Positions 1 through 53,470 of a stretch of 64,000 nt of DNA are shown one piece after another; the first letter of the stretch is position 1, and every line of letters begins with the position of its first letter. The DNA lies in assembly GCA_964537265.1 (NCBI GenBank), contig CAZHZE010000001.1:27103-91102 (forward strand). The letters are read 5' to 3'. The notes beneath the pieces were generated by a model. It was not told where the DNA came from. It saw only the letters and a program-made list of their open reading frames with translations, and did no database searches. Made by a program: the position numbers and the translations under genes. Source of the stretch: an uncultured Gammaproteobacteria bacterium. Its GTDB lineage: Bacteria > Patescibacteriota > Patescibacteriia > Patescibacteriales > GWC2-42-12.

Positions 1-2384
1 TGCAAGGCACGGCCGAAGTAGCCATGATTTTAGAACGCGCCAAAAAAGAAGCTGATAGAATCGGCGACGAATATATTTCTACCGAACATTTATTTTTATC
101 AATAATCGGCGTAAAAACAAAAGCTCAAGAAATTTTAATTAACGCCGGAGTTGAGTATGCTGAAGTTTTAAAAATTTTAGCAAAATTGCGCGGCTCGCAA
201 ACCATTACCGACCCGGAACCAGAATCAAAATTCAGAGTTTTAGAAAAATACGCCATTAATTTAACCGAGCTAGCGCGCCAGGAAAAACTTGATCCGGTTA
301 TCGGCCGTGATGAAGAGATTAGGCGCATTATGCAAGTCTTATCCAGACGCACAAAAAATAATCCAGTTTTAATCGGCGAAGCCGGCACTGGTAAAACAGC
401 GATCATTGAAGGCTTAGCGCAACGCATTGTAGCCGGTGATGTGCCGGAAACTTTAAAAGGCAAAGAATTGATTTCTTTAGACTTAGGCGCTTTAGTTGCT
501 GGTTCAAAATTTAGGGGCGAATTTGAAGACCGTTTAAAAGCCGTTCTAAAGGAAATAAAAGCCCAGGGCGGCAATATCATACTCTTTATTGACGAATTGC
601 ACACCTTAGTGGGCGCAGGCGCTTCTGAAGGCTCTATGGACGCTTCTAATATGTTAAAGCCGGCTTTGGCGCGCGGCGAATTAAAAGCCGTGGGCGCTAC
701 TACTACCCGTGAATACCAAAAATATATTGAAAAAGACGCGGCGCTAGAAAGGCGTTTTCAGCCGATTTATGTTTCTGAACCTTCGATCGAAGATACAATT
801 GCAATCTTACGCGGCATAAAAGAAAAATATGAAGTTCATCACGGCGTCCGAATTACTGATGACGCTTTAATCTCCGCCGCAAAATTATCTTCACGCTATA
901 TTACCGACAGATTTCTACCGGATAAAGCCGTAGATTTAGTTGATGAAGCAACTTCGGCTTTACGCATGGAAATAGACTCTTCGCCTGAAGAATTAGATAC
1001 TTTAAAAAGAGATATAAAACGTTTAGAAATTGAAAAAGCTGGTTTAAATAAAGAAAATAAACAAAACTCTAAACTTAAAGATATAAATAAAAAATTAGCT
1101 CAGCTAAAAGAAAAAGCTAACCAAATAGAACTTCATTGGCATAATGAAAAAAATGTTATTGCAAAAATAAGGCAATCTAAAAAACAAATTGATGAATTAA
1201 AAATTCAAGCCGAAATTATTGAACGCCGGGGCGATGATTTAACTCAGGTAGCGGAAATATTATATTCAAAAATCCCGGCGTTAGAGCAGGAAGTAAAAAA
1301 ACAAGAAACTGAACTCGTGAAAATACAAAGCGCCGGACAAAGAATTTTGAAAGAAGAAGTTGATGAAGAAGATATCGCTAAAGTAGTCGCCCGCTGGACC
1401 GGCATCCCGGTAGCTAAAATGCTTGAATCGGAAATAAAAAAATTAGCTAAAGCCGAAGAAGTTTTAAATAAACGCGTCATCGGCCAAGACGAAGCTATCA
1501 AATCAGTCGCTAACGCAATTAGGCGTTCGCGAGCCGGCATTAGCGAAGAGAAAAAACCCATCGGCTCTTTTATGTTCGTCGGCCCGACCGGCGTAGGTAA
1601 AACCGAACTGGCTAAAGCCATCGCCGAATTTATGTTTAACGACGAAAACGCTTTAGTAAGATTAGATATGAGTGAATTTATGGAAAAGCATTCGGTGGCA
1701 AAAATAATCGGCTCCCCTCCTGGCTATGTCGGACATGATGAAGGAGGACAATTAACCGATAAAATTAGGCGCCGACCATATAGCGTTGTCTTATTTGATG
1801 AAATAGAAAAAGCCCACCCCGAAGTCTTTAATATATTACTGCAAATTTTAGACGACGGCCGATTAACCGATTCAAAGGGCCGCTCGGTCAACTTCAAAAA
1901 TTCTATTATTATCATGACTTCTAATTTAGGCAATGAAGTTATTAAAGAATATTCTATCGGTTTTACCGATACGACCGACATAAAACAAGCCGCTACCTTG
2001 CGTAATGATGAAATGAAAGAAAAAATTGATCGGATTTTAAAAGATAATTTTAAGCTGGAATTTTTAAACCGTATTGATGAAATTGTAATATTTAAGAGCT
2101 TGAATAAAGATGTTTTATCGGAAATCGTTGATTTAGAATTAGCTAAGGTAGAAAAAAGATTAAAAAACAAAGAAATTAATCTTAAGATCGGCCTGAAAGT
2201 TAAAAAAATGCTAGCGGAAAAAGGTTATGATACGACTTACGGCGCCCGCCCGCTAAAACGCATTATTCAGAATGTAATTTTAGATGAACTGGCCATGGAA
2301 ATAATCGAAGGCAAAATTAAACAGGGCGATAAAGTAGAAATTAATCTTGGCATAAAAGACAAAATTTTAATGACCATAAAATAA
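1..2384 (+). CDS. clpB: ClpB-type Hsp100 disaggregase, 5'-truncated by the window edge
   Basis: The frame of ORF 24..2384 stays open back to position 3. Two AAA+ modules are present ([16 protein letters not shown] and [19 protein letters not shown]), separated by a long K/E-rich coiled-coil middle domain, with a C-terminal GARPLKR motif. Confidence 0.9.
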
Positions 2385-2431
2385 ACTCATACACTTATTC
2401 ATAAGTGTGCGGGAAATTCAGAATAAAAAGA

Positions 2432-2462
2432 AGCACCCTTTTTAAAAACAGGGTGCTTTTTT
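2432..2462. terminator. Intrinsic terminator hairpin between convergent clpB and ORF 2486..3154
   Basis: Stem AGCACCCT / AGGGTGCT, with an A-run upstream and a T-run downstream, so it can act in both directions. Confidence 0.6.
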
Positions 2463-2485
2463 GTTAATCATAAGTCCGATTTCCG

Positions 2486-3154
2486 CTAAGCAGGCTGGGG
2501 TATAAAATGGCCTCCGCGGATAGTTTTTCTTTTTCCCAGAAATTTTTTAATTCGCCGACCTGCGTCACGACGGGCATTTTTTATTTCACGCATACTTTTG
2601 CCGGCACGTTCAGCCTTTTTGGTTTTAACGAAAACATCGTTTCTCGTTGAGCCATGGAACCTTGGCTTGATAATAAAAGCATTGGGTTGCGCCGGCTCGG
2701 CAGGAAATAAATGAGGACAGCAAGGGCGATAATAATTTGCAATATCTTCCCGGTTTTTTAAAAGTTCCTTGCCTTCATCTTCTTCTTCACCGCGAAAAAA
2801 TATTGGCGCGTCCAGGCTGGGAATAATTGTTTCCTCTTTCCCCCGGTTGTCAATCATTGCGATAATGGCATCTTCCGATGATACAAAAGCGACGGAAGCA
2901 ATATCTAAAGGCGACATTACGCAAGATAAAATACTAACCGAGGGTATGACGCCACCTCCGGTTATGATTGCAACCAACTTCTCCTCGTCAGGAACGCGAA
3001 TCTTGCCGGCGCAATGTTTGAATTCTTCCTGAACCGATTGCGGCCAATTTTCTATGCCTAAAGCATTATGCAGCGGCATGATTTGCGCTTTTGTTAAATT
3101 TAAAGGAGCTACAACTTTCTTACCGCCTAAAAAAGAATCAGACCCCTTCTTCAT
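2486..3154 (-). CDS. Hypothetical protein with a strongly basic C-terminal tail
   Basis: 222-aa ORF with an SD-like GGGGGA 8 nt upstream of the ATG. No family recognised. The C-terminus is K/R-rich (KTKKAERAGKSMREIKNARRDAGRRIKKFLGKRK). Confidence 0.55.
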   Translation of the reverse strand: MKKGSDSFLGGKKVVAPLNLTKAQIMPLHNALGIENWPQSVQEEFKHCAGKIRVPDEEKLVAIITGGGVIPSVSILSCVMSPLDIASVAFVSSEDAIIAMIDNRGKEETIIPSLDAPIFFRGEEEDEGKELLKNREDIANYYRPCCPHLFPAEPAQPNAFIIKPRFHGSTRNDVFVKTKKAERAGKSMREIKNARRDAGRRIKKFLGKRKTIRGGHFIPQPA

Positions 3155-3328
3155 TATTAAAATCCCCCTTTCAAAAATTTATGAAATAACATTAACATAA
3201 TTCATAAAAAAAATCAATATACATCTTATATATTAAACTAATATTAGCAAAGTTATTTTTTGTAATTTGCCCAGAGCCTTTTCGTATACTATAATATATA
3301 ATATAACTCACAATTAAGCATTATAAAT

Positions 3329-4798
3329 ATGGCTAAAACAAAGCTATTATTATTATTTTTCTGTTTTTCTTTAGTTTTTGTATTTACTATTAGTGCGGCT
3401 AAGGCCGAAGGTTTTGATCCTAATAATATTATTAGCGATTTAGAAATTTTGGATTATACTTCCATGGGCTTAAATGAAATCCAAACATTCTTACAAAATA
3501 AAGGCAGTTATTTAGCTACCTATTCCTGCCCTGACGCTTACGGCATGATCAGAAAAGCTTCGGAAATAATTTACAATGCGGCGGCTAATAATTTTGACTG
3601 CGACGGCGCTGTTTTAAGCGATAATCCGACTATTGAAGAAAGACAAGCTAAATGCAAAAAAATAACTATCAGCCCGAAATTTCTTTTGGTGCTTTTGCAA
3701 AAAGAGCAAAGTTTAATTGAAAGAAGCACAACTCCGACTCAAAGAAGCCTAGATTGGGCGACCGGTTATGGTTGTCCTGATTCTGGCGGTTGTAATTCAC
3801 GCTGGCAAGGTTTTGGCAAACAAGTTAATTCAGCCGCTTTGCAATTCAGAGATTATATTGATAATCCGCAATATTATACTTACAAAGCCGGCAACACTTA
3901 TACTTTTACCAATACTGACGCCGAGCCTATGACCGTTACGCCGGCTAATCAAGCCACAGCCGCGCTTTATAATTACACGCCGCATGTTTATAACGGCAAT
4001 TATAATTTTTATAAAATCTGGCAACGCTGGTTCACAAAAATTTATCCCGACGGCTCGCTTTTGCAAGCTAGCGGAGAAGCTGGAGTCTGGCTATTGCAAA
4101 ATGGTTTAATTCGTCCATTTTTATCTAAATCAGCTTTGGTCTCTCGCTTTGACATAAATAAAATTATCATCGTAAATAAATCCGATTTGGATAAATATGA
4201 AAAAGGCACGCCGATTAAATTCGCTCAATATTCTTTAGTAAAATCTCCGCGCGGCACGATTTTCTTAATCGTTGATGATAAAAAACGCGGCTTCACTTCT
4301 ATGGAAGCTTTCAGAAAAATGGGCTTTAACCCCGAAGAAGTCGTTAGCGCCGCCTGGGAAGATATAAATTATTATGCCGACGGTCCGAATATTACCGCTA
4401 CCTCTACTTATCCGACCGGCGCTTTGCTGCAAAATAATAAAACCGGTGGAATTTATTATGTAATTGATGGCATCAAATATCCGCTAATAGATAAAATTTT
4501 CTTAACTACTAAATTTAAAAGTAAAAAAATCATAGCTGTAACTCCGGCGGAATTGGATGGATATGAAACAGCCAAACCTTATCTATTCGGCGACGGCGAA
4601 TTGCTTAAAACAAAAGATTCTCCTTATACTTATGTAATTTCCGGCGGAAAAAAACTTTTAATAACCTCGGATAAAGTCTTTACTAGTTTAGGTTATAAAA
4701 TCGAAAATGTTATAATCGTGCCTTCAAGCATTTTGTATTTATATGAAGCCGGCACTCCTTTAACCGAAGAATTATTGGTTAATAATAGTACTAATTAA
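3329..4798 (+). CDS. Secreted protein of unknown function, possibly cell-wall associated
   Basis: 489-aa ORF with an N-terminal signal peptide (LLLLFFCFSLVFVFTISAAKA). No catalytic motif recognised with confidence. Confidence 0.7.
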   Translation: MAKTKLLLLFFCFSLVFVFTISAAKAEGFDPNNIISDLEILDYTSMGLNEIQTFLQNKGSYLATYSCPDAYGMIRKASEIIYNAAANNFDCDGAVLSDNPTIEERQAKCKKITISPKFLLVLLQKEQSLIERSTTPTQRSLDWATGYGCPDSGGCNSRWQGFGKQVNSAALQFRDYIDNPQYYTYKAGNTYTFTNTDAEPMTVTPANQATAALYNYTPHVYNGNYNFYKIWQRWFTKIYPDGSLLQASGEAGVWLLQNGLIRPFLSKSALVSRFDINKIIIVNKSDLDKYEKGTPIKFAQYSLVKSPRGTIFLIVDDKKRGFTSMEAFRKMGFNPEEVVSAAWEDINYYADGPNITATSTYPTGALLQNNKTGGIYYVIDGIKYPLIDKIFLTTKFKSKKIIAVTPAELDGYETAKPYLFGDGELLKTKDSPYTYVISGGKKLLITSDKVFTSLGYKIENVIIVPSSILYLYEAGTPLTEELLVNNSTN

Positions 4799-4824
4799 AA
4801 TTATAAAATTAAAAATTTAATTTT

Positions 4825-5613
4825 ATGCCAATTGTATTTTCCGCCATTACGCCTCATCCGCCTATCGCCATTCCTACAATCGGCAAAGATAATGTAAAAC
4901 AGATCGAAGCCACAACTAAAGCTTTCTTAAAACTTGAGCAGGAATTATACGCCTCGCAACCGGATAGCATTATAGTTATTTCTCCGCATGGCTATTTGCA
5001 GGAAGACGCTTTTACTATAAATCTAAGCCCGGAATTTACGGCTGGTTTTGATAATTTCGGCGACCTAACGACTAAATTTACTTTAGCCGGAGATGTCGGG
5101 TTAGCGCATCAGATAAAAGAAAGTTTGGAAACAAAGGCCCGACTGCAGCTAAATAGCGAACCGGATCTTGACCATGGCGCGTCCGTGCCGCTTTATTTTT
5201 TAACTCAACATCTGCCTAAAATAAAAATAATCCCGCTTTATTATTCGGGATTGGATTTAAAAGCTCATTATGATTTCGGGCAAATGATAAAAAGTAAACT
5301 GACTAACTCCCCTAACCGAATCGCCATCATCGCTTCCGGCGACTTATCGCACCGTTTAATTAAAAACGCCCCGGCCGGTTATAGCCCTAAAGGAAAAAAA
5401 TTTGATCAAAAACTTATTGATTGTTTACTAAAAAAAGAAACCGAAGAGCTGATAAAATTAAAACCTGAATTTGTAGAAGAAGCCGGTGAATGCGGCTTAA
5501 AATCAATTATGATTTTACTCGGCATTTTAGAAGGCGTACAATACGAACCGCAGCTTTTTTCTTACGAAGGGCCGTTCGGCGTCGGCTATATGGTAATGAA
5601 TTTTAAATTATAG
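4825..5613 (+). CDS. Class III extradiol dioxygenase subunit B (LigB/Memo-like) family protein
   Basis: Family-typical motifs: PHPP near the N-terminus, ISPHG, DHGASVPL and ASGDLSHRL. Confidence 0.65.
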   Translation: MPIVFSAITPHPPIAIPTIGKDNVKQIEATTKAFLKLEQELYASQPDSIIVISPHGYLQEDAFTINLSPEFTAGFDNFGDLTTKFTLAGDVGLAHQIKESLETKARLQLNSEPDLDHGASVPLYFLTQHLPKIKIIPLYYSGLDLKAHYDFGQMIKSKLTNSPNRIAIIASGDLSHRLIKNAPAGYSPKGKKFDQKLIDCLLKKETEELIKLKPEFVEEAGECGLKSIMILLGILEGVQYEPQLFSYEGPFGVGYMVMNFKL

Positions 5614-5898
5614 TTTTTTCTTTCCGCCGTCAACGACTTTAAAAAAGTATTTCCATTTTTCTCCAGTCTGACATAATTCTTTAGTATCATTTAGGGCAGT
5701 TTCTATAATAACTCTTGGCTTCTGCTTGCAAACTTTAAAAACTGAATTTCTTTTGTTACTAGGCACGCTTAGTTCCTTAATTACGCGCAATGCCAAATCC
5801 TGCCAGGCGTAAGCCGGCGGTTTTGGCAGTAACCCCTTATTTTTTGCGCCTTGGGCGAATAAATCCCCTATTTTTTCCAAACCTTTATCTATTTGCAT
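5608..5898 (-). CDS. Small hypothetical protein
   Basis: 96-aa ORF convergent with the previous gene, with a 6-nt overlap of the stop regions. No recognised domain. Confidence 0.5.
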   Translation of the reverse strand: MQIDKGLEKIGDLFAQGAKNKGLLPKPPAYAWQDLALRVIKELSVPSNKRNSVFKVCKQKPRVIIETALNDTKELCQTGEKWKYFFKVVDGGKKKL

Positions 5899-5954
5899 AA
5901 TATAATTATATCATATATAGTTTAGAGTTGATAAGTTATATTTTTACTAATTTT

Positions 5955-6428
5955 ATGCCAATCTTAAAAATAATCACACAACCTAATTCTATATTAAGGA
6001 AAAAATCTACGGAAATTAATGTTAAAGACATAAAAAGCCGGGAACTGCAGGGCTTAATTTTATCTATGGGGAAAACCATGATAAAAAAAGACGGCGTGGG
6101 CTTAGCCGCTCCACAAATAGGAAAAAATATTCGCTTAGTCGTGATTAATTCTAAAGACGGAGTTTTTTGTTTAATAAATCCTAAATTTATCAAAAAATCC
6201 TGGGCGCGCGAACTCGGTCAGGAAGGCTGCTTATCCGTACCAGGAGTTTTCGGAAAAGTTAAAAGGCATAAAAAAATTAGTTTAACCTATTATAACCAAA
6301 AAGGTGAAAAAGTAAAATTAACCGCCGAAGGCATGATGGCGCGAGTTATTCAACATGAAGTTGATCATCTAGACGGAATTTTATTTATAGATAAAGCAAA
6401 AGATTTAGAAAAAGTGGAAGATAAATAA
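5955..6428 (+). CDS. def: Peptide deformylase
   Basis: Motifs GVGLAAPQIG, EGCLSVPG and QHEVDHLDG. I chose the ATG at 5955 (MPILKIITQPN) rather than the upstream TTG at 5928. Confidence 0.9.
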   Translation: MPILKIITQPNSILRKKSTEINVKDIKSRELQGLILSMGKTMIKKDGVGLAAPQIGKNIRLVVINSKDGVFCLINPKFIKKSWARELGQEGCLSVPGVFGKVKRHKKISLTYYNQKGEKVKLTAEGMMARVIQHEVDHLDGILFIDKAKDLEKVEDK

Positions 6429-6430
6429 TT

Positions 6431-7366
6431 ATGCAAAAAACAAAAATCATTTATATCGGCACGGCCGAATTCGGTCTGCCATCTTTTCAGGCTTTACTAA
6501 ACGAGCCTGATTTTGAAATTCCTTTGGTTATAACTCAGCCGGATAAACCAGCAGGCCGAAAACAAATTTTGACTTCCCCGCCGATAAAAATAGAAGCTGA
6601 AAAAAGAGGTATCACGGTTTTGCAACCGACGCATATTATAGATATTTTAGAAAAAATTTCTTTATTGAAACCGGACTTAATTATCGTTGCGGCTTATGCT
6701 CAGCTTATACCTGAGGCGATTTTGAATTTACCTAAATACGGTTGTCTTAATCTGCATGCTTCGCTTTTGCCTAAATATCGCGGTTCAGCCATAATCCAGG
6801 CAGCAATTTTAAACGGCGACGAGCAAACCGGAGTAACTATAATGAAAATGGATAAAGGGCTGGACACCGGACCAATTTTAACTCAAAATGCTATTAACAT
6901 AGAAGAAAACGATACTGCCGGAACATTATATGATAAATTATCGGCTATGAGCTCTGATTTTCTTATTAAAACCGTAAAGAAATATTTAGCCGGAGAAATT
7001 GAGCCAAAAATGCAAGATTCAAGCCAAGCCAGTTATGCTAAAGAGATAACTAAAAGCGACGGCTTAATAAATTGGAAAAAACCGGCCGCGGAATTAGAAA
7101 AATTTATTAGAGCCATGAACCCTTGGCCGAGCGCCTGGACCTGGCACGAAGGCAAACAGGTTAAAATAATTTGCGCGCAGAATAAACCTTTAGAAATAAA
7201 TTCTTATAAACCAGGTAAAACTTTTAAATATAATAATGGTTTGGCTGTGCAATGCGGCCGCGATGCTTTAATTATAAAAAAATTACAGCTTGAAGGAAAA
7301 AATGCGGTTACGAGCGAAGAATTTTTACGAGGCCATAAAAATTTTATTGGGACTATTTTAGGTTAA
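6431..7366 (+). CDS. fmt: Methionyl-tRNA formyltransferase
   Basis: Typical Fmt N-terminus (IIYIGTAEFG), the motif NLHASLLPKYRGSAIIQAAIL, and the def-fmt gene pair. Confidence 0.9.
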   Translation: MQKTKIIYIGTAEFGLPSFQALLNEPDFEIPLVITQPDKPAGRKQILTSPPIKIEAEKRGITVLQPTHIIDILEKISLLKPDLIIVAAYAQLIPEAILNLPKYGCLNLHASLLPKYRGSAIIQAAILNGDEQTGVTIMKMDKGLDTGPILTQNAINIEENDTAGTLYDKLSAMSSDFLIKTVKKYLAGEIEPKMQDSSQASYAKEITKSDGLINWKKPAAELEKFIRAMNPWPSAWTWHEGKQVKIICAQNKPLEINSYKPGKTFKYNNGLAVQCGRDALIIKKLQLEGKNAVTSEEFLRGHKNFIGTILG

Positions 7367-7372
7367 CGTTAT

Positions 7373-7444
7373 GCCGCCATCGTCTAACGGTTAGGACGCC
7401 AGGTTCTCATCCTGGTAATAGGAGTTCGATTCTCCTTGGCGGTA
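7373..7444 (+). tRNA. tRNA-Glu (anticodon CUC)
   Basis: Hand-folded cloverleaf: GCCGCCA TC GTCT AACGGTTA GGAC G CCAGG TTCTCAT CCTGG TAAT AGGAG TTCGATT CTCCT TGGCGGT A. It has a G1-U72 pair and no encoded CCA. Confidence 0.9.
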
Positions 7445-7451
7445 CTATAAT

Positions 7452-7482
7452 AAAAAACAGATGAACAATTCATCTGTTTTTT
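7452..7482. terminator. Bidirectional intrinsic terminator (tRNA-Glu / ftsI)
   Basis: Stem ACAGATGAA / TTCATCTGT with loop CAA, flanked by an A-run and a T-run. Confidence 0.65.
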
Positions 7483-26266: not shown

Positions 26267-27322
26267 TTATTTCTTGATTATCTTACTGTTATATACCAAC
26301 ACGCAGTTATTGTACTCTTCATACGTATTGGCTTTTTCACAGGGCGTGCCCTGGATAGAAAGTTTCACATTTTCCGGTAATAAACGTTCGGAATTGCGAA
26401 AATTTTTCGTCGCGATTGACGACGAAGCTACTGGTTTATAATTCTTCTCGTAGTACTCCAGCAATTCATAATAATCACCTGCTGTCAGTACTCTGTCCAT
26501 GTAGCCGGGTTGATTCAAATCTTCCTGAAATAATTGCTTTGGGATTTGAAAAACCTTAGATGCTAAAATATAAGCTCCGTAAGCTTGCGGAGTTAAAATG
26601 GGATATGTTGCTACCACATACCATCCTTCGCCAAAAAATTGCTTTACAAGCTTATCACGTCCGCTTTTTTCCAACTTCTTAAGAACTTCTTCAGGCAAGG
26701 CGGAATAAAAAGGAATATTATACTCCTTATAAATAGCCCGCACTTCCTTTTGCAGCTTCTGACCGACAAAAGAAGCATTAAGGTCAACCGCTCTTTCAAA
26801 AGCCTCGGTGCCGTTTTCATACAACATCGGGTTAACCTCGCTAACTCTCGGCAAAAAATTCTCGGCTTTTTCAGGATTAAATTTCCCAATGTCTCCGAGC
26901 TTTATATATTTCTCCGAGCGCGGATCGAAAATGCGTTTTCCAGCATGATCGGCAATTCCGATAAAAGTATTATCGAAATCAAACTTTACAGATACTGGAA
27001 TTAAAACGGTTAATTTATTACCCAACGTTTTCACGCCGAAAAATTCATAGAATTTCCAATCTTCACCGTCTTTGTAATAAACCGGCGTCATCCAGGCAAT
27101 CGAAACCTGTTCAATGCCTTCATCATTTAACAGAGCCGTATCGGCAATGTTTAATTTTTTCGGCAAAGGAACTTCTATTTTATAAACCGCTTTAATCGAT
27201 TCCGCTTTATTAAATTGCGGAACGGCGTACATCTCGCCCAGGACTATCTTTGAGTTACTCCCACACCCGCAAAACATAACCGCGACCATCAGAAAGATGG
27301 CCAAAAAGATATTTCTTTTCAT
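26267..27322 (-). CDS. Lipoprotein of unknown function (block gene 2)
   Basis: Lipobox VMFCGCGS. I chose the start at 27322 because AGGAGG lies 6 nt upstream; the ORF-track start at 27328 abuts the SD. Confidence 0.7.
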   Translation of the reverse strand: MKRNIFLAIFLMVAVMFCGCGSNSKIVLGEMYAVPQFNKAESIKAVYKIEVPLPKKLNIADTALLNDEGIEQVSIAWMTPVYYKDGEDWKFYEFFGVKTLGNKLTVLIPVSVKFDFDNTFIGIADHAGKRIFDPRSEKYIKLGDIGKFNPEKAENFLPRVSEVNPMLYENGTEAFERAVDLNASFVGQKLQKEVRAIYKEYNIPFYSALPEEVLKKLEKSGRDKLVKQFFGEGWYVVATYPILTPQAYGAYILASKVFQIPKQLFQEDLNQPGYMDRVLTAGDYYELLEYYEKNYKPVASSSIATKNFRNSERLLPENVKLSIQGTPCEKANTYEEYNNCVLVYNSKIIKK

Positions 27323-29275: not shown

Positions 29276-30637
29276 CTAATTATTGTTTATCTGAAAAATT
29301 TTACCTACTGGCCAGCTTTTTTTATTAAATTCACCGTCAACAATCTGACTTTTTTTAAATTCTACATCAAAATAATACTCTGTTTTACCAATTGTTTTAT
29401 CTGACTTAATTCTTTCTATTACGACTTGCAAATTTTTATTTTTAAACTTCTTTTTGTAGCTATTAGCTAATTCAACACCCAACTTTCTTAATATTGCCGC
29501 TCGCCTATTTTTTTCTTTTTCTTCAACCTGATTTGGCATGCTCGCGGCCGGAGTTTTTTCATGGGCTGAAAAAGGAAAAACATGCAAACGGCTAAATTTT
29601 ATTTGTTGAATAAATTTTTTTGTTTCTTCAAAATCCTTTTTCGTCTCGCCGGGAAAACCGACGATCACATCCGTGGTGATAGCGACATCCGAAAGAACAC
29701 GCCTAATTTTTTTTACTTTATTTAAAAAATATTTTTTATCGTACGGACGATTCATTAATTTTAAAATTTTATCTGAACCAGCTTGCAAAGGTAAATGAAG
29801 GTGCTTACAAATCTTTTTTTCTTTAACCATCAAATTTATTAATTCATCAGACACTTCGGTAATTTCAATTGAGCTTAAACGCACTCGACCAAACTCGTTA
29901 ATTTTAATTATTTTTTTTATTAAACTAACTAAATTGTCATTGCGAGGAGCGCCAGCGACGCGGCGATCTAACTTACTATTTACTTTACAATTTGTTTGTG
30001 AGATTGCTTCGCTCCTTTTAGTCGCTCGCAATGACAGTTGCCTTTCTTTCCCATAAAGCCCTAAATGAATTCCGGATAATACAACTTCTTCATAGCCGTT
30101 TGCAACAGCTTTAGTAATCTCATTAATTATTTCTTTTTCCCCCCTACTTTTTAATTTTCCTCGTACATAAGGAATAATACAATAACTGCAATACTGTTCG
30201 CAGCCGTCTTGTATTTTTATAAAATAACGTGATCTATCGGTCGCGGCCAGCTTTATTTTTTTATCGTTTGGCGTTGAGCATTTTTTAAAAATTTTTTTAA
30301 TCGCTTTACTAGCATCTTTATCTTTTATAATATAATCGACTCCGGAGATTTTATTACCATTTAATCTTGGCCAACAACCTGCCAAAATTATTTTTGCTTT
30401 AGGATTTTCCTTTTTAGCTAATTTAACTATACGGCAGCTTTTTACTATAGCTGTTTTAGTAACCGCGCAACTATTAATAATAGCCATATCGGCATTTTTT
30501 TTGATCGCAATAAAACCAGCCATTTCCAACTCAGCGGCTAAAGATCCTGAATCATATTGATTAACTTTACAACCAAGGGTGTAAATTTTATATGTCTTTA
30601 CCCTGTTAAATACTATCTTGTTATCATGAACTGCCAT
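29276..30637 (-). CDS. mtaB: tRNA methylthiotransferase of the MtaB type (radical SAM), carrying an in-frame insertion
   Basis: UPF0004 N-terminal domain (YTLGCKVNQYDSG), radical SAM cluster CEQYCSYC, and VIVGFPGETKKDFEET. The YGKE...RVRLSSIE spacing is about 27-36 aa longer than in B. subtilis MtaB as I recall it. Confidence 0.85.
   Translation of the reverse strand: MAVHDNKIVFNRVKTYKIYTLGCKVNQYDSGSLAAELEMAGFIAIKKNADMAIINSCAVTKTAIVKSCRIVKLAKKENPKAKIILAGCWPRLNGNKISGVDYIIKDKDASKAIKKIFKKCSTPNDKKIKLAATDRSRYFIKIQDGCEQYCSYCIIPYVRGKLKSRGEKEIINEITKAVANGYEEVVLSGIHLGLYGKERQLSLRATKRSEAISQTNCKVNSKLDRRVAGAPRNDNLVSLIKKIIKINEFGRVRLSSIEITEVSDELINLMVKEKKICKHLHLPLQAGSDKILKLMNRPYDKKYFLNKVKKIRRVLSDVAITTDVIVGFPGETKKDFEETKKFIQQIKFSRLHVFPFSAHEKTPAASMPNQVEEKEKNRRAAILRKLGVELANSYKKKFKNKNLQVVIERIKSDKTIGKTEYYFDVEFKKSQIVDGEFNKKSWPVGKIFQINNN
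29936..30035. repeat. Palindromic repeat element of about 100 bp inserted in frame in mtaB
   Basis: Terminal inverted repeat GTCATTGCGAG (29936-46) / CTCGCAATGAC (30025-35), with further imperfect arm matches (GAGCG, GC(G/A)ATC). It translates to SLRATKRSEAIS...AGAPRND. Confidence 0.6.
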
Positions 30638-30806: not shown

Positions 30807-30823
30807 CTATTGAGAAATAAATA

Positions 30824-30845
30824 TGTGCGCCGTATTGGATTCGAA
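30824..30845 (-). pseudogene. Duplicate of the 3' end of tRNA-Lys (fragment)
   Basis: The plus strand TGTGCGCCGTATTGGATTCGAA matches 30945..30967 (TGGTGCGCCGTACTGGATTCGAA) with one mismatch and one indel. No complete cloverleaf can be folded. Confidence 0.6.
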
Positions 30846-30944
30846 GGGGCAAGCCCCACGCCGACACACAGTTTCGAATCCTTTATGAGAATTAAAAAAC
30901 CTTAATAATTTATTTTAAATTAAACTAAAAAAACAGCATTCTGC

Positions 30945-31020
30945 TGGTGCGCCGTACTGGATTCGAACCAGTGACCTTCTCCTTAAAAGGGAGCTGCTCT
31001 GCCAACTGAGCTAACAGCGC
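30945..31020 (-). tRNA. tRNA-Lys (anticodon UUU), CCA encoded
   Basis: GCGCTGT TA GCTC AGTTGGCA GAGC A GCTCC CTTTTAA GGAGA AGGTC ACTGG TTCGAAT CCAGT ACGGCGC A CCA. Confidence 0.9.
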
Positions 31021-31029
31021 GTAAATAAA

Positions 31030-31266
31030 TTATATTCTATTTTCTAAAAACTTTCTACCAAAACCTGTTTTAAAATATTTTTCTCTATTTAGGGCTTTAA
31101 ATTTATTATTACATGCCTCATAATATGCTAGCTTTAACGGCCTTCTGTCTCTAGTAGAAACTACCAAACCATTCTGATGTTCTAAAAATCTTTTTCTTAA
31201 ATCATGAGTAAACCCAATATATAATTTTTTGTCTTTTATGCTTTCTAATATATAAGTGTAATACAT
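31030..31266 (-). CDS. Small GIY-YIG nuclease family protein
   Basis: MYYTYILESIKDKKLYIGFTHDLRKRFLEHQNG contains the GIY-YIG motifs YxYIL and YIGxT. I chose the internal ATG at 31266; the upstream part of the 125-aa ORF looks non-coding. Confidence 0.8.
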   Translation of the reverse strand: MYYTYILESIKDKKLYIGFTHDLRKRFLEHQNGLVVSTRDRRPLKLAYYEACNNKFKALNREKYFKTGFGRKFLENRI

Positions 31267-31389
31267 GCTCTTAATACGCCAACTGAGCCCCGCCCGCCAT
31301 GCAAGCCAGCTTGCTGGCGTTGCGGGCGCGGTAACGGCGCGCAAATAAAAAACCCGCGCCAACGGATATGTTAATAATAAAATAACATA
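31267..31389 (-). other. GC-rich nested-hairpin block with a tRNA D-arm-like segment upstream of the GIY-YIG gene
   Basis: On the minus strand a 10-bp hairpin (GGATATGTTA / TAACATATCC) comes first. Next, CCGCGCCCGC pairs with GCGGGCGGGG around GCCAGC-AA-GCTGGC. Then GCTCAGTTGGC..GAGC matches the tRNA-Lys D-arm (11-mer plus GAGC, with a 7-nt insertion). Confidence 0.4.
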
Positions 31390-53076: not shown

Positions 53077-53435
53077 TATATTTTTTCGCATTTCTCATTT
53101 ATAACAGTTAAAACCTCATCCATATTTTCTTTTATGTCATTATTTGTAAATCTAATTACTCTCAATCCTAAACTCTCAAAATATTTTTCCCTGATTGCAT
53201 CATCTGCAATTTCCTTATTAGTTGAATGGGTGGCTCCATCAATCTCAATAATTAATCTCTTCTTGGGACAATAAAAATCCACAATATATTTACCAATGCC
53301 AAATTGGCGTTTAAATTTATAGCCTAAATTTTTATTTCTTAATTTTGACCATAATTTTATTTCCGCCAAAATCCCCTGTCCCCTTAAAATTTTTCTTAGA
53401 CCTTTCTGCGATTTGAGATTAAATAATTGAGTCAT
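53076..53435 (-). CDS. DUF559 (Vsr-like endonuclease fold) protein inserted between dnaK and dnaJ
   Basis: YIVDFYCPKKRLIIEIDGATHS ... DAIREKYFESLGLRVIRFTNNDI matches the DUF559 pattern (DF...L.IE.DG..H...D..R...L...G..V.RF.N). Confidence 0.8.
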   Translation of the reverse strand: MTQLFNLKSQKGLRKILRGQGILAEIKLWSKLRNKNLGYKFKRQFGIGKYIVDFYCPKKRLIIEIDGATHSTNKEIADDAIREKYFESLGLRVIRFTNNDIKENMDEVLTVINEKCEKI

Positions 53436-53438
53436 GAA

Positions 53439-53470
53439 ACCTCCCCTAGCCCCTCCTTCGCAAGAAGGGG
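53439..53470 (-). repeat. Hairpin-plus-AGGGGAGGT element, copy C (inverted relative to copy A; supplies the DUF559 SD)
   Basis: The minus strand reads CCCCTTCTT-GCG-AAGGAGGGG, then CTAGGGGAGGT, then TTC and the ATG. Confidence 0.6.

Follow-up and report, generated by a model that had tools for sequence, protein, structure and literature searches.

The stretch of DNA analysed here, hereafter called the window, comprises 64,000 nucleotides (positions 27,103 to 91,102) of contig CAZHZE010000001.1 from an uncultured bacterium of the Patescibacteria. Its gene mtaB, which codes for a radical S-adenosylmethionine (SAM) tRNA methylthiotransferase, contains a palindromic element of 102 bp that lengthens the reading frame by 33 codons. 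The element is best explained as a non-autonomous CGTC/TGTC-tagged hairpin repeat that was inserted in frame and is tolerated as a passenger, a reading to which we assign a probability of about 0.8. Judged by its sequence, it belongs to the superfamily of repetitive extragenic palindromic (REP) elements described by Di Nocera et al. (2013), which is also that of the Ssn-related motifs (SRM) of Chenal et al. (2025). Within this superfamily it is a copy of the 'ATTGCGAG' variant, referred to below as type A.

The complete element, including the flanking pyrimidine-purine pair, occupies positions 29935..30036 on the minus strand, as delimited by its sequence, its 12-bp terminal repeat and a covariance model. 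The outer inverted repeat is perfect over 12 bp (29935-29946, TGTCATTGCGAG; 30025-30036, CTCGCAATGACA) and extends to 15 nt if one mismatch is allowed. The initial annotation, made from the sequence alone, had located the repeat sequences correctly and quoted the right peptide (residues about 199-234). Its bounded element of about 100 bp agrees with the 102 bp found here; the terminal repeat is slightly longer than it had stated, with 12 perfect base pairs instead of 11. The 11-mer GTCATTGCGAG (29936-29946, plus strand) and its complement CTCGCAATGAC (30025-30035) occur at these two sites only in the 64-kb window, and 29935-30036 is the sole long-spaced GC-rich inverted repeat of such kind in it. 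Along the plus strand the order is TGTCATTGCGAG-GAGCGCCAGCGAC-GCGGCGATC-(33-nt AT-rich spacer)-GATTGCTTC-GCTCCTTTTAGTCG-CTCGCAATGACA, with imperfect complementarity in the inner pair GCGGCGATC / GATTGCTTC.

This architecture is that of an inverted dimer of TGTC-tagged units of the 'ATTGCGAG' family that lacks an open reading frame (ORF) of its own. TGTC is present at both ends, and the CGACTAAAAGGAGC arm lies on the coding strand of mtaB. Unit 1 (30002..30036, minus strand) consists, in coding-strand reading, of the TGTC tag, ATTGC, a 20-nt interior (GAGCGACTAAAAGGAGCGAA), GCAAT and a terminal C; with a wobble of 4 nt allowed, its arm is common to at least 120 metagenome contigs. Unit 2 (29935..29968, plus strand) reads TGTC, ATTGC, the interior GAGGAGCGCCAGCGACGCG, GCGAT and C. 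Its GCGAT departs from the consensus GCAAT by one T-to-C change, which accounts for the single non-standard pair in the model alignment; the element at locus L001 retains GATTGC at this place. The two units are separated by an AT-rich apical spacer (29969..30001), recognised by its fold and by alignment with the copies at L152, L158, L182, L227 and L245. Compared with the 100-nt subfamily, whose apical stems are paired, this spacer has decayed. On these comparisons the window copy is slightly decayed, having one inner-arm change and having lost its apical stem.

A covariance model (R1) was built from 37 copies at other loci, none of them from mtaB. It matched positions 29933-30038 over its full length on the minus (coding) strand with 86.6 bits (E = 1.2e-21), compared with 41.6 bits on the plus strand at the same site. 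Since no mtaB copy had entered the model, a match of this strength excludes a chance resemblance. The predicted RNA fold of the element has a free energy of -32.4 kcal/mol (z = -2.5 against shuffled sequences), and its DNA fold reaches z = -3.1 by the same comparison.

The host ORF (29276..30637, minus strand; 453 aa) was identified as mtaB from the ORF list, Pfam, NCBIfam and a fold match. It exceeds the cutoff of the NCBIfam equivalog TIGR01579 (372.2 bits; cutoff 357.05), the match being broken in two at the insert, and carries the Pfam domains UPF0004 (PF00919) and Radical_SAM (PF04055, residues 140-343). Cysteines 23, 57, 88, 146, 150 and 153 are invariant over the ortholog alignment, and in fold the protein comes closest to the B. 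subtilis MtaB model 9a6d, followed by MiaB and RimO. Judged by the names of its homologs, the organism belongs to the Patescibacteria, near Falkowbacteria. Comparison by codon with L003 and L004, whose sites are empty, revealed that codons 201-234 (LSLRATKRSEAISQTNCKVNSKLDRRVAGAPRND; 29936..30037, minus strand) are read from the element, with a net gain of 99 nt or 33 codons over these two orthologs.

The insertion was directly observed in comparisons with orthologs, of which 38 were aligned and 120 then scanned for the state of the loop. The stretch from GIHLG to RLSSIE comprises 24-28 residues in most orthologs versus 57 in the window protein. Empty sites, found in orthologs with 80-90% gene identity, read GGA AAA GAT AAT AAA AAT AAT TTA GTT, and the window site reads GGG AAA GAA AGG CAA C-TGTCATTGCGAG...CTCGCAATGAC-AAT TTA GTT; at the protein level, GKDNKNNLV stands against GKERQ[LSLR...APRND]NLV. 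A further 80 orthologs were taken from GTDB species-representative genomes (more distant Patescibacteria, Bacillota, Omnitrophota and others) and served as outgroup, the relatives listed having at most 53% identity. The insert is absent from all 80, whose loops comprise 23-35 residues apart from one 49-residue outlier (L282) without a hairpin-repeat peptide, and no further filled site was present among the GTDB mtaB matches listed. Thus the gain of about 27-36 residues proposed initially is confirmed at a net 33, with clean empty sites and with short loops also in Bacillota. Instead of a segment conserved in all orthologs and without further genomic copies, the comparison yielded empty sites and family copies elsewhere. 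The exact window protein is also encoded by an independently assembled contig (Logan SRR11845625), so that the insert is not an assembly artefact. Over the 10-13 nt to the left of the element, filled alleles (GAAAGRCAAC) do not match empty ones (GATAATAAAAAT), for which reason the insertion boundaries cannot be fixed exactly; a sliding-window comparison of filled and empty alleles detected no long recombination tract. Many Patescibacteria-like mtaB loci of GTDB (L247, L248, L251 and others) are titled 'uncultured Gammaproteobacteria bacterium isolate binchicken...', a misleading label.

In an AlphaFold2 model built on the ortholog alignment, the insert follows strand 184-188, which ends in SGIHLG, and precedes helix 234-244. 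Given the extent of the Pfam domain (140-343), it therefore lies inside the radical-SAM domain and not, as the initial annotation had it, between the radical SAM core and the RVRLSSIE strand. Residues 202-232 were modelled with a predicted local distance difference test (pLDDT) score below 50 and without secondary structure.

All six mtaB alleles checked as DNA keep the frame and are free of stops. At the phase of mtaB only 79 of 232 family copies (34%) would keep the frame without a stop. This difference points to selection on an intact ORF and thereby to read-through of the element rather than its excision at the RNA level. The peptide as such is not conserved, as the window and L001 elements differ by 7 nucleotides in 5 codons and all five differences are non-synonymous. 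The insert is probably a tolerated passenger without a function of its own in MtaB, and the element is presumably neutral there. A search of 5.8 billion proteins with the insert peptides in both orientations, by way of a 62-aa concatenate, returned no match at E <= 1; short peptides cannot reach significance in a collection of this size.

As recognised from matches to its arms, the 'ATTGCGAG' variant is spread over hundreds of contigs and several phyla, in line with the widespread class of hairpin repeats to which the arms had been ascribed initially. The pattern GTCATTGCGAG-N55-85-CTCGCAATGAC occurs on at least 120 contigs of the viral collection and the coding-strand arm GTCATTGCGAGCGACTNNNNGGAGCGAAGCAATC on at least 120 of the metagenome collection. 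A canonical copy matches alphaproteobacterial, cyanobacterial and gammaproteobacterial replicons, those of Novosphingobium (one of them in at least 40 places), Methylosinus, Methylocystis, Aulosira and Halomonas, with no annotated feature beneath any of these matches. A mostly intergenic spread was also observed in the arm subfamily, where 82 of 96 complete copies lack an ORF that runs across them (50 open codons required on both sides). Element lengths in the family cover all three classes modulo 3.

The family follows a common plan of Y-GTCATTGCGAG, a variable stretch that often forms a small hairpin of its own, G(A/C/T)(A/G)GCAATC(C/T), a variable apex, and the reverse order down to CTCGCAATGAC-R. 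Type-A units read ATTGC...GCAAT, and the spacers of the dimers measure about 10-100 nt. The GTC of the tag is invariant by design of the search. About 95% of 231 copies have a pyrimidine immediately outside the arm and, at the other end, a purine, which yields the CGTC/TGTC tag. Its first base is T in 76% of the cases in low-GC contigs and C in 58% in high-GC contigs. After GCAAT comes a C and then a further base that is C in 65 copies and T in 35, with G or A as its partner on the opposite arm. For comparison with the CCA tail of described units, high-GC copies read GCAATCCAG and low-GC copies, that of the window included, GCAATCTC. Covariation with the paired base was seen at the outer position and directly after GCAATC, and the side hairpins vary with compensatory changes; no covariation was detected at the distal three inner-helix positions (57 complementary pairs versus 50.6 expected). 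Neither the stability nor the G-U pairs revealed a strand asymmetry (30 versus 24 elements).

A direct repeat at the junction was absent from 200 of the 231 copies, hence no target-site duplication was observed. Whole elements form tandem dimers at L038, L089 and L112, and at L118 (689-844) single arms (TCCGTCATTGCGAGGCGTAGCCGTGGCAATCTCTGCTTTAA) run head to tail with a 41-nt period and a complete hairpin at the end. The distribution, the tag, the absence of a duplication and the occurrence of single arms and arrays characterize the family as REP-type and not as a family of miniature inverted-repeat transposable elements (MITE). The L118 locus is rich in other intergenic palindromes as well (ACAAGGGGACATGTCCCCTTGT, CGGGCGGATATGGAATCCGCCC). 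A second host gene was encountered at L156, where a 69-nt family copy (6598-6666; VVARSKATKQSEIASLPSVARNDG) lies in frame in an ORF that takes up the entire locus (1-7482, minus strand) and measures at least 2494 aa. Window and canonical copies had no match in Rfam 15 at gathering thresholds or at E <= 1-10. Full-text literature searches for the DNA motif and the peptides returned chance primer matches only, and those combining Patescibacteria or Parcubacteria with 'palindromic' returned CRISPR papers only.

An Ssn-type GIY-YIG nuclease is the likely protein partner of the family, a link that the initial annotation had missed. Chenal et al. (2025) described an oriented Neisseria repeat, the NTS (CGTCATTCCCGCGMAVGCGGGAATCYRG), and Ssn-related motifs that flank small single-domain GIY-YIG genes (PMC11893778). 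For binding, Ssn proteins require the hairpin as single-stranded DNA, which they cleave a few bases 5' of the tag, as demonstrated for Neisseria and Wolbachia pairs; in N. meningitidis Ssn reduces how much transforming DNA is integrated, and SsnA does not act on RNA (PMC11893778). Among all ORFs of the fetched loci, a jackhmmer profile search identified five of the GIY-YIG type at loci that bear the element, and an arm lies within 30 nt of four of these. An earlier regular expression, according to which GIY-YIG ORFs adjoined 2 of 139 copies, had been too strict and gave a false negative. At L126 an ORF of about 98 aa is enclosed by two arms, a left one (GTCATTGCGAG...GAAGCAATC) and a right one (GATTGCTTCG...CTCGCAATGAC), and at L149, L153 and L112 arms or whole elements abut the GIY-YIG gene. 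The L126 contig also bears an mtaB allele with the element.

Over 96% of its length, the L112 protein is 44.7% identical to the SsnA ortholog of N. gonorrhoeae (tblastn E = 8e-19), the published limit for homologs of N. meningitidis SsnA being a tblastn E < 1e-10 (PMC11893778). In full-length pairwise comparisons with the gonococcal ortholog, L112 reached E = 5e-28 (45% identity) and L126 E = 3e-20 (41%). The ortholog was recognised by Y6, Y17 and E64, the positions at which mutants were made in PMC11893778, and by seven surrounding NTS repeats; its gene is chromosomal, on a record listed among the plasmids in PLSDB. The PLSDB 'plasmid' NZ_CP119140.1 (L328) is in fact a 2.17-Mb N. gonorrhoeae chromosome with a misleading label. 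Ssn-type genes of Planktothrix, Spirosoma, Sinorhizobium and Azospirillum are flanked by dimers of their own, (C/T)GTCAT...ATGAC(G/A). Because type-A arms enclose or flank Ssn-like genes, the elements of 80-100 bp are best read as ORF-less relatives of a GIY-YIG-carrying unit, and an Ssn-like nuclease would presumably move or maintain the element.

The loop of MtaB turned out to be polymorphic among relatives. In the 120 homologs scanned, it contains type A in the orientation of the window (LSLRAT..SEAIS...APRND), one of several other contents, or nothing. Type A in the opposite orientation (LSLRGA..ATKQS...REIA..VARND) was checked as DNA at L157. In L327 a second CGTC dimer is nested within a truncated first one, and in L326 a different CGTC dimer is present, the right arm of which is one base off the Neisseria NTS consensus and fits the SRM pattern. 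These type-B (L327) and type-C (L326) alleles read ATTCCGGC...GCCGGAAT and ATGCCGGA...TCCGGCAT, respectively; the type-C arms have stems of 8-9 bp and loops of 4-5 nt, and the type-B arms likewise except for one loop of 6 nt. Further repeat-like peptides and short remnants such as ...PSND occur at other alleles, so that the inserts comprise unrelated peptides from different families, orientations and reading frames.

These states of the loop are interleaved in a neighbour-joining tree of mtaB computed with the loop masked. The filled L001 and the empty L004 genes are about 90% identical. Window and L001 genes share about 76% identity, their elements 92% and a private apical variant; the closest relative of each of these genomes has an empty site. 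The elements of L126 and L157 face opposite ways, in genes that agree at 98% of positions upstream of the element and at 88% downstream. The starting nucleotide of the element, four codons and one base after YG, is shared by the five type-A alleles available as DNA, and those codons differ. In our reading, one early insertion would have been followed by conversion, inversion, nesting, deletion and allele exchange; repeated independent insertion at one preferred position is possible. A stronger proposal is that the loop is a true landing pad at which, given a first CGTC-type hairpin, Ssn-type cuts in single-stranded DNA, during replication or DNA uptake, would drive conversion, inversion, replacement by copies from elsewhere in the genome and homing-like spread of the filled allele among related lineages. 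Such a mechanism would explain the 92% versus 76% identity, the empty closest relatives, the flip between L126 and L157 and the mixture of CGTC families, yet we consider it speculative and rather improbable. The turnover at one MtaB loop is the only unusual feature of the case.

A second variable stretch of MtaB is located at 30236-30250 (minus strand; residues 130-134, LAATD), just before the CxxxCxxC motif. It reads ..GLAMTD or ..RLAMTD in many relatives, and ELRITD, GRLRITNK and similar repeat-like peptides in others. At L157 and L327 its DNA resembles CTCGCAATGAC with two mismatches. By this resemblance it may be the relic of an older arm of the 'ATTGCGAG' family. Elsewhere in the window, a GC-rich motif (GTCATGAAACCTCCCCTAGCCCCTCCTTCGCAAGAAGGGG) occurs at 53431-53470 within an AT-rich stretch and resembles a repeat class with the peptides ..PLLIRRGRGEV.. 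and ..TPNPSPRTGEG.., which is found in the MtaB loop of P0034, P0090 and P0116.

According to the passenger reading, a mobile or formerly mobile hairpin copy, made of two inverted tagged units and a 33-nt spacer, would have landed in the MtaB loop after the SGIHLG strand in a Falkowbacteria-like lineage of the Patescibacteria, without target-site duplication. Its full-length relatives carry a single-domain GIY-YIG gene of about 98 aa, an SsnA homolog, between or beside the same arms. The gene would have stayed intact because the length of the element keeps the frame and no stop occurs in that frame. The element would then have been read through as a 33-residue loop with no confident predicted fold, and the filled site would later have served as a landing pad that holds a copy in either orientation, a nested or different CGTC element, remnants or nothing.

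Several observations weigh against this reading. The scan of the 64-kb window with R1 detected no second copy of the element, and an Ssn-type gene was not found in the window. The SRM pattern HGTCWYN(0-2)YYVSBRHN(0-5)WNVSBRGN(0-2)RNCYNB, which matched the positive controls (NTS and the right arm of L326), had no match in the window and none on canonical type-A arms. A GIY-YIG gene 1 kb away, at 31033-31270 (78 aa), was considered as the cognate nuclease and rejected, as it belongs to another subfamily and is not flanked by arms. Its product is 34% identical to SsnA over 64 residues, is shorter and is devoid of the C-terminal NPxWxDL part; the gene occurs in the empty-site loci L004 and L005 and is absent from the filled L001, and hence does not track the element. 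The published data on Ssn concern cleavage and an effect on transformation only, not the mobilisation of repeats (PMC11893778). Unlike the CGTC families 1-4, which have stems of 8-9 bp and loops of 4-5 nt (PMC3733652), type-A units possess a 5-bp stem (ATTGC/GCAAT) around a purine-rich interior of 12-20 nt (19-20 nt in the window), which makes the element a variant not covered by the four families described. Translation of the 33-residue insert, finally, is a prediction from the open frame, and the higher identity of the elements (92%) than of the genes (about 76%) between window and L001 shows that a plain old passenger is insufficient and that recent spread, conversion or a constraint at the nucleotide level is needed.

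The last of these points also speaks for a role at the RNA level, by which the element would be excised from the mtaB transcript or act as a regulatory or stabilising structure, the protein insert being irrelevant or absent. The stable hairpin (-32 kcal/mol), the compensatory changes in the side hairpins of the family, the exclusively non-synonymous codon changes between window and L001, and the view that REPs act as RNA elements in other bacteria would fit such a role. It is nevertheless improbable: the element has no Rfam family and no strand asymmetry, it occurs in both orientations in mtaB, SsnA is inactive on RNA, and the open frame of every mtaB allele, compared with about a third expected, would be surprising under excision. 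A role of the inserted loop in MtaB function, e.g. in the binding of tRNA or of a partner, with maintenance by selection on the protein, has a very small likelihood in our estimation. Radical-SAM enzymes bind their substrates on the side of the barrel where the MtaB insert is located, just after the SGIHLG strand, and many relatives keep some insert. Against recruitment stand the unrelated peptides at the site, the close relatives without any insert, the altered residue in each of the five differing codons and the lack of predicted structure. As for a native ancestral segment of MtaB or an assembly artefact, nothing but the in-frame position would suggest it; the absence from 80 of 80 distant orthologs, the match to an intergenic family at E = 1e-21 and the independent assemblies refute this explanation.

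Two other explanations accept a mobile element and differ from the preferred passenger reading in its nature. A REPIN-type doublet moved by a RAYT transposase of the IS200/IS605-like kind, and not by a relative of Ssn, would account for the inverted doublet of short palindromes, the mostly extragenic distribution, the lack of duplications and the presence of singlets and clusters, and one Y1-transposase-like ORF was indeed detected in an element-bearing locus (L210). The head of the element is YGTC and not GTAG, however, the gene directly flanked by arms is of the GIY-YIG type, and no tyrosine transposase gene flanked by CGTC units has been reported (PMC3733652). Searches of 2.2 Mb of loci by tblastn with RAYT and IS200 TnpA queries found one Y1 transposase, 3.3 kb from the element. 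The IS200/RAYT-like gene of L210 (7950-8650) has paired hairpins of its own on both sides (GCGGGCATAAATGCCCGC ... GATGCCCCCGCTGGGGGCA), unrelated to the CGTC-type element. A movement by RAYT is accordingly judged unlikely. Still less is to be said for a classical MITE, for which a DDE transposase acting in trans would have moved an insertion sequence with an internal deletion. Terminal repeats of 12 bp, a size of about 100 bp, many dispersed copies and AT-rich flanks in low-GC genomes are features of MITEs; the missing junction repeats in 200 of 231 copies, the lone arms in REP-like tandem arrays and the lack of a transposase-bearing parent among the relatives found, the coding one of which bears a GIY-YIG gene, make this origin very improbable.

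The surroundings of the rejected GIY-YIG gene deserve a description in their own right. The ORF at 31033-31270 (minus strand) separates a duplicated 5' fragment from the intact gene of tRNA-Lys, the flanks being 31271-31342 and 30945-31020. The fragment consists of GCGCGCCGTTA, a 43-nt GC-rich hairpin insert and GCTCAGTTGGC, and the arrangement is kept in L004 and L005. Its appearance suggests a small GIY-YIG cassette with a tRNA gene as target, the 5' part of which would be restored by the cassette. Between tRNA-Lys and tRNA-Thr, at 30822-30882 (minus strand), a partial 3' duplicate of tRNA-Lys (...CCTTCGAATCCAATACGGCGCACA) is preceded by a small GC hairpin (GGGGCTTGCCCC); neither ARAGORN nor Rfam called a tRNA there. 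At L326 (450-1000) a GIY-YIG ORF is likewise situated between two copies of tRNA-Thr, of which the downstream one has a 27-nt hairpin (TGCCCCGCCTTTATTAGGCGGGGTGAA) in the D-loop region. Hairpins inserted into tRNA genes may represent a phenomenon of their own.

With this element, the occurrence of in-frame CGTC repeats in housekeeping genes extends to the Patescibacteria and to a radical-SAM tRNA methylthiotransferase. The 'ATTGCGAG' family is very abundant, unannotated and escapes both Rfam and the published SRM pattern. With a small GIY-YIG gene enclosed by its arms, it has the gene partnership of NTS and SsnA in Neisseria. Recurrent metagenome peptides of the LSLRA...APRND and LSLRGA..ATKQS...VARND types are explained as repeat-derived and can be flagged in annotation. 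The MtaB loop, with at least five states in close relatives, offers a natural series for the gain, flip, replacement and loss of a hairpin.

Di Nocera, De Gregorio and Rocco (2013) divided REPs into GTAG-tagged and CGTC-tagged superfamilies (PMC3733652). CGTC units carry a CGTC or TGTC (or CCTC) tag, start their stem with two A-T pairs and end in a short CCA tail; they occur in five phyla, mostly as inverted dimers with spacers of 20-100 bp that can form one long hairpin, and no transposase was found beside them (PMC3733652). Some dimers lie wholly in ORFs and code for 20-30 in-frame residues, with VIPAKAGI, SFPRKRES and ...DSRFRRND among the listed peptides, and Neisseria dRS3 is a CGTC-tagged member (PMC3733652). 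Type A agrees with these repeats in the YGTC tag, the A-T start of the stem, the inverted dimers, the commonness of heterodimers, and the mostly intergenic location with some in-frame intragenic copies. Term searches of the supplementary tables of PMC3733652 found neither the 'ATTGCGAG' type nor MtaB. The intragenic peptides listed in the survey are of the same kind as those in MtaB relatives. Patescibacteria genomes post-date that survey.

The NTS/Ssn system resembles the type-A family in the YGTCAT head, the oriented hairpin repeat and the GIY-YIG gene of about 95 aa that is flanked or enclosed in an NTS-ssnA-NTS layout. It differs in that type-A arms fall outside the SRM pattern and the window has no Ssn-type gene; intragenic copies are not treated in PMC11893778. 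Rickettsia palindromic elements (RPE; Ogata et al. 2000, 2002), of which RPE-1 and similar ones measure about 150 bp (reviewed in PMC10969869), are likewise found in frame in housekeeping genes, where they are predicted to form loops and leave the protein intact. The parallel with RPEs drawn in the initial annotation holds, since RPE-4 and RPE-6 are CGTC-4 and CGTC-1 units, respectively (PMC3733652); its suggestion of a separate instance does not, as in-frame insertion is a described general behaviour of the superfamily. In contrast to the Rickettsia elements, the type-A family is GC-rich and crosses phyla, and a single MtaB loop turns over instead of many genes being hit once. As the link to RPEs rests on the statement in PMC3733652, the window element is regarded as working like an RPE and is not filed as one. 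REPINs and their RAYTs (Bertels and Rainey 2011) share with type A the inverted REP doublet, the long hairpin, the non-autonomous state, the absence of a duplication and a flanked single-copy partner gene; the type-A partner is a GIY-YIG nuclease and not an HUH tyrosine transposase, and the head is YGTC and not GTAG. Intragenic in-frame CGTC repeats are thus known, and the window element adds a new phylum, a new host gene and an undescribed unit variant to a kind of system that is not itself new.

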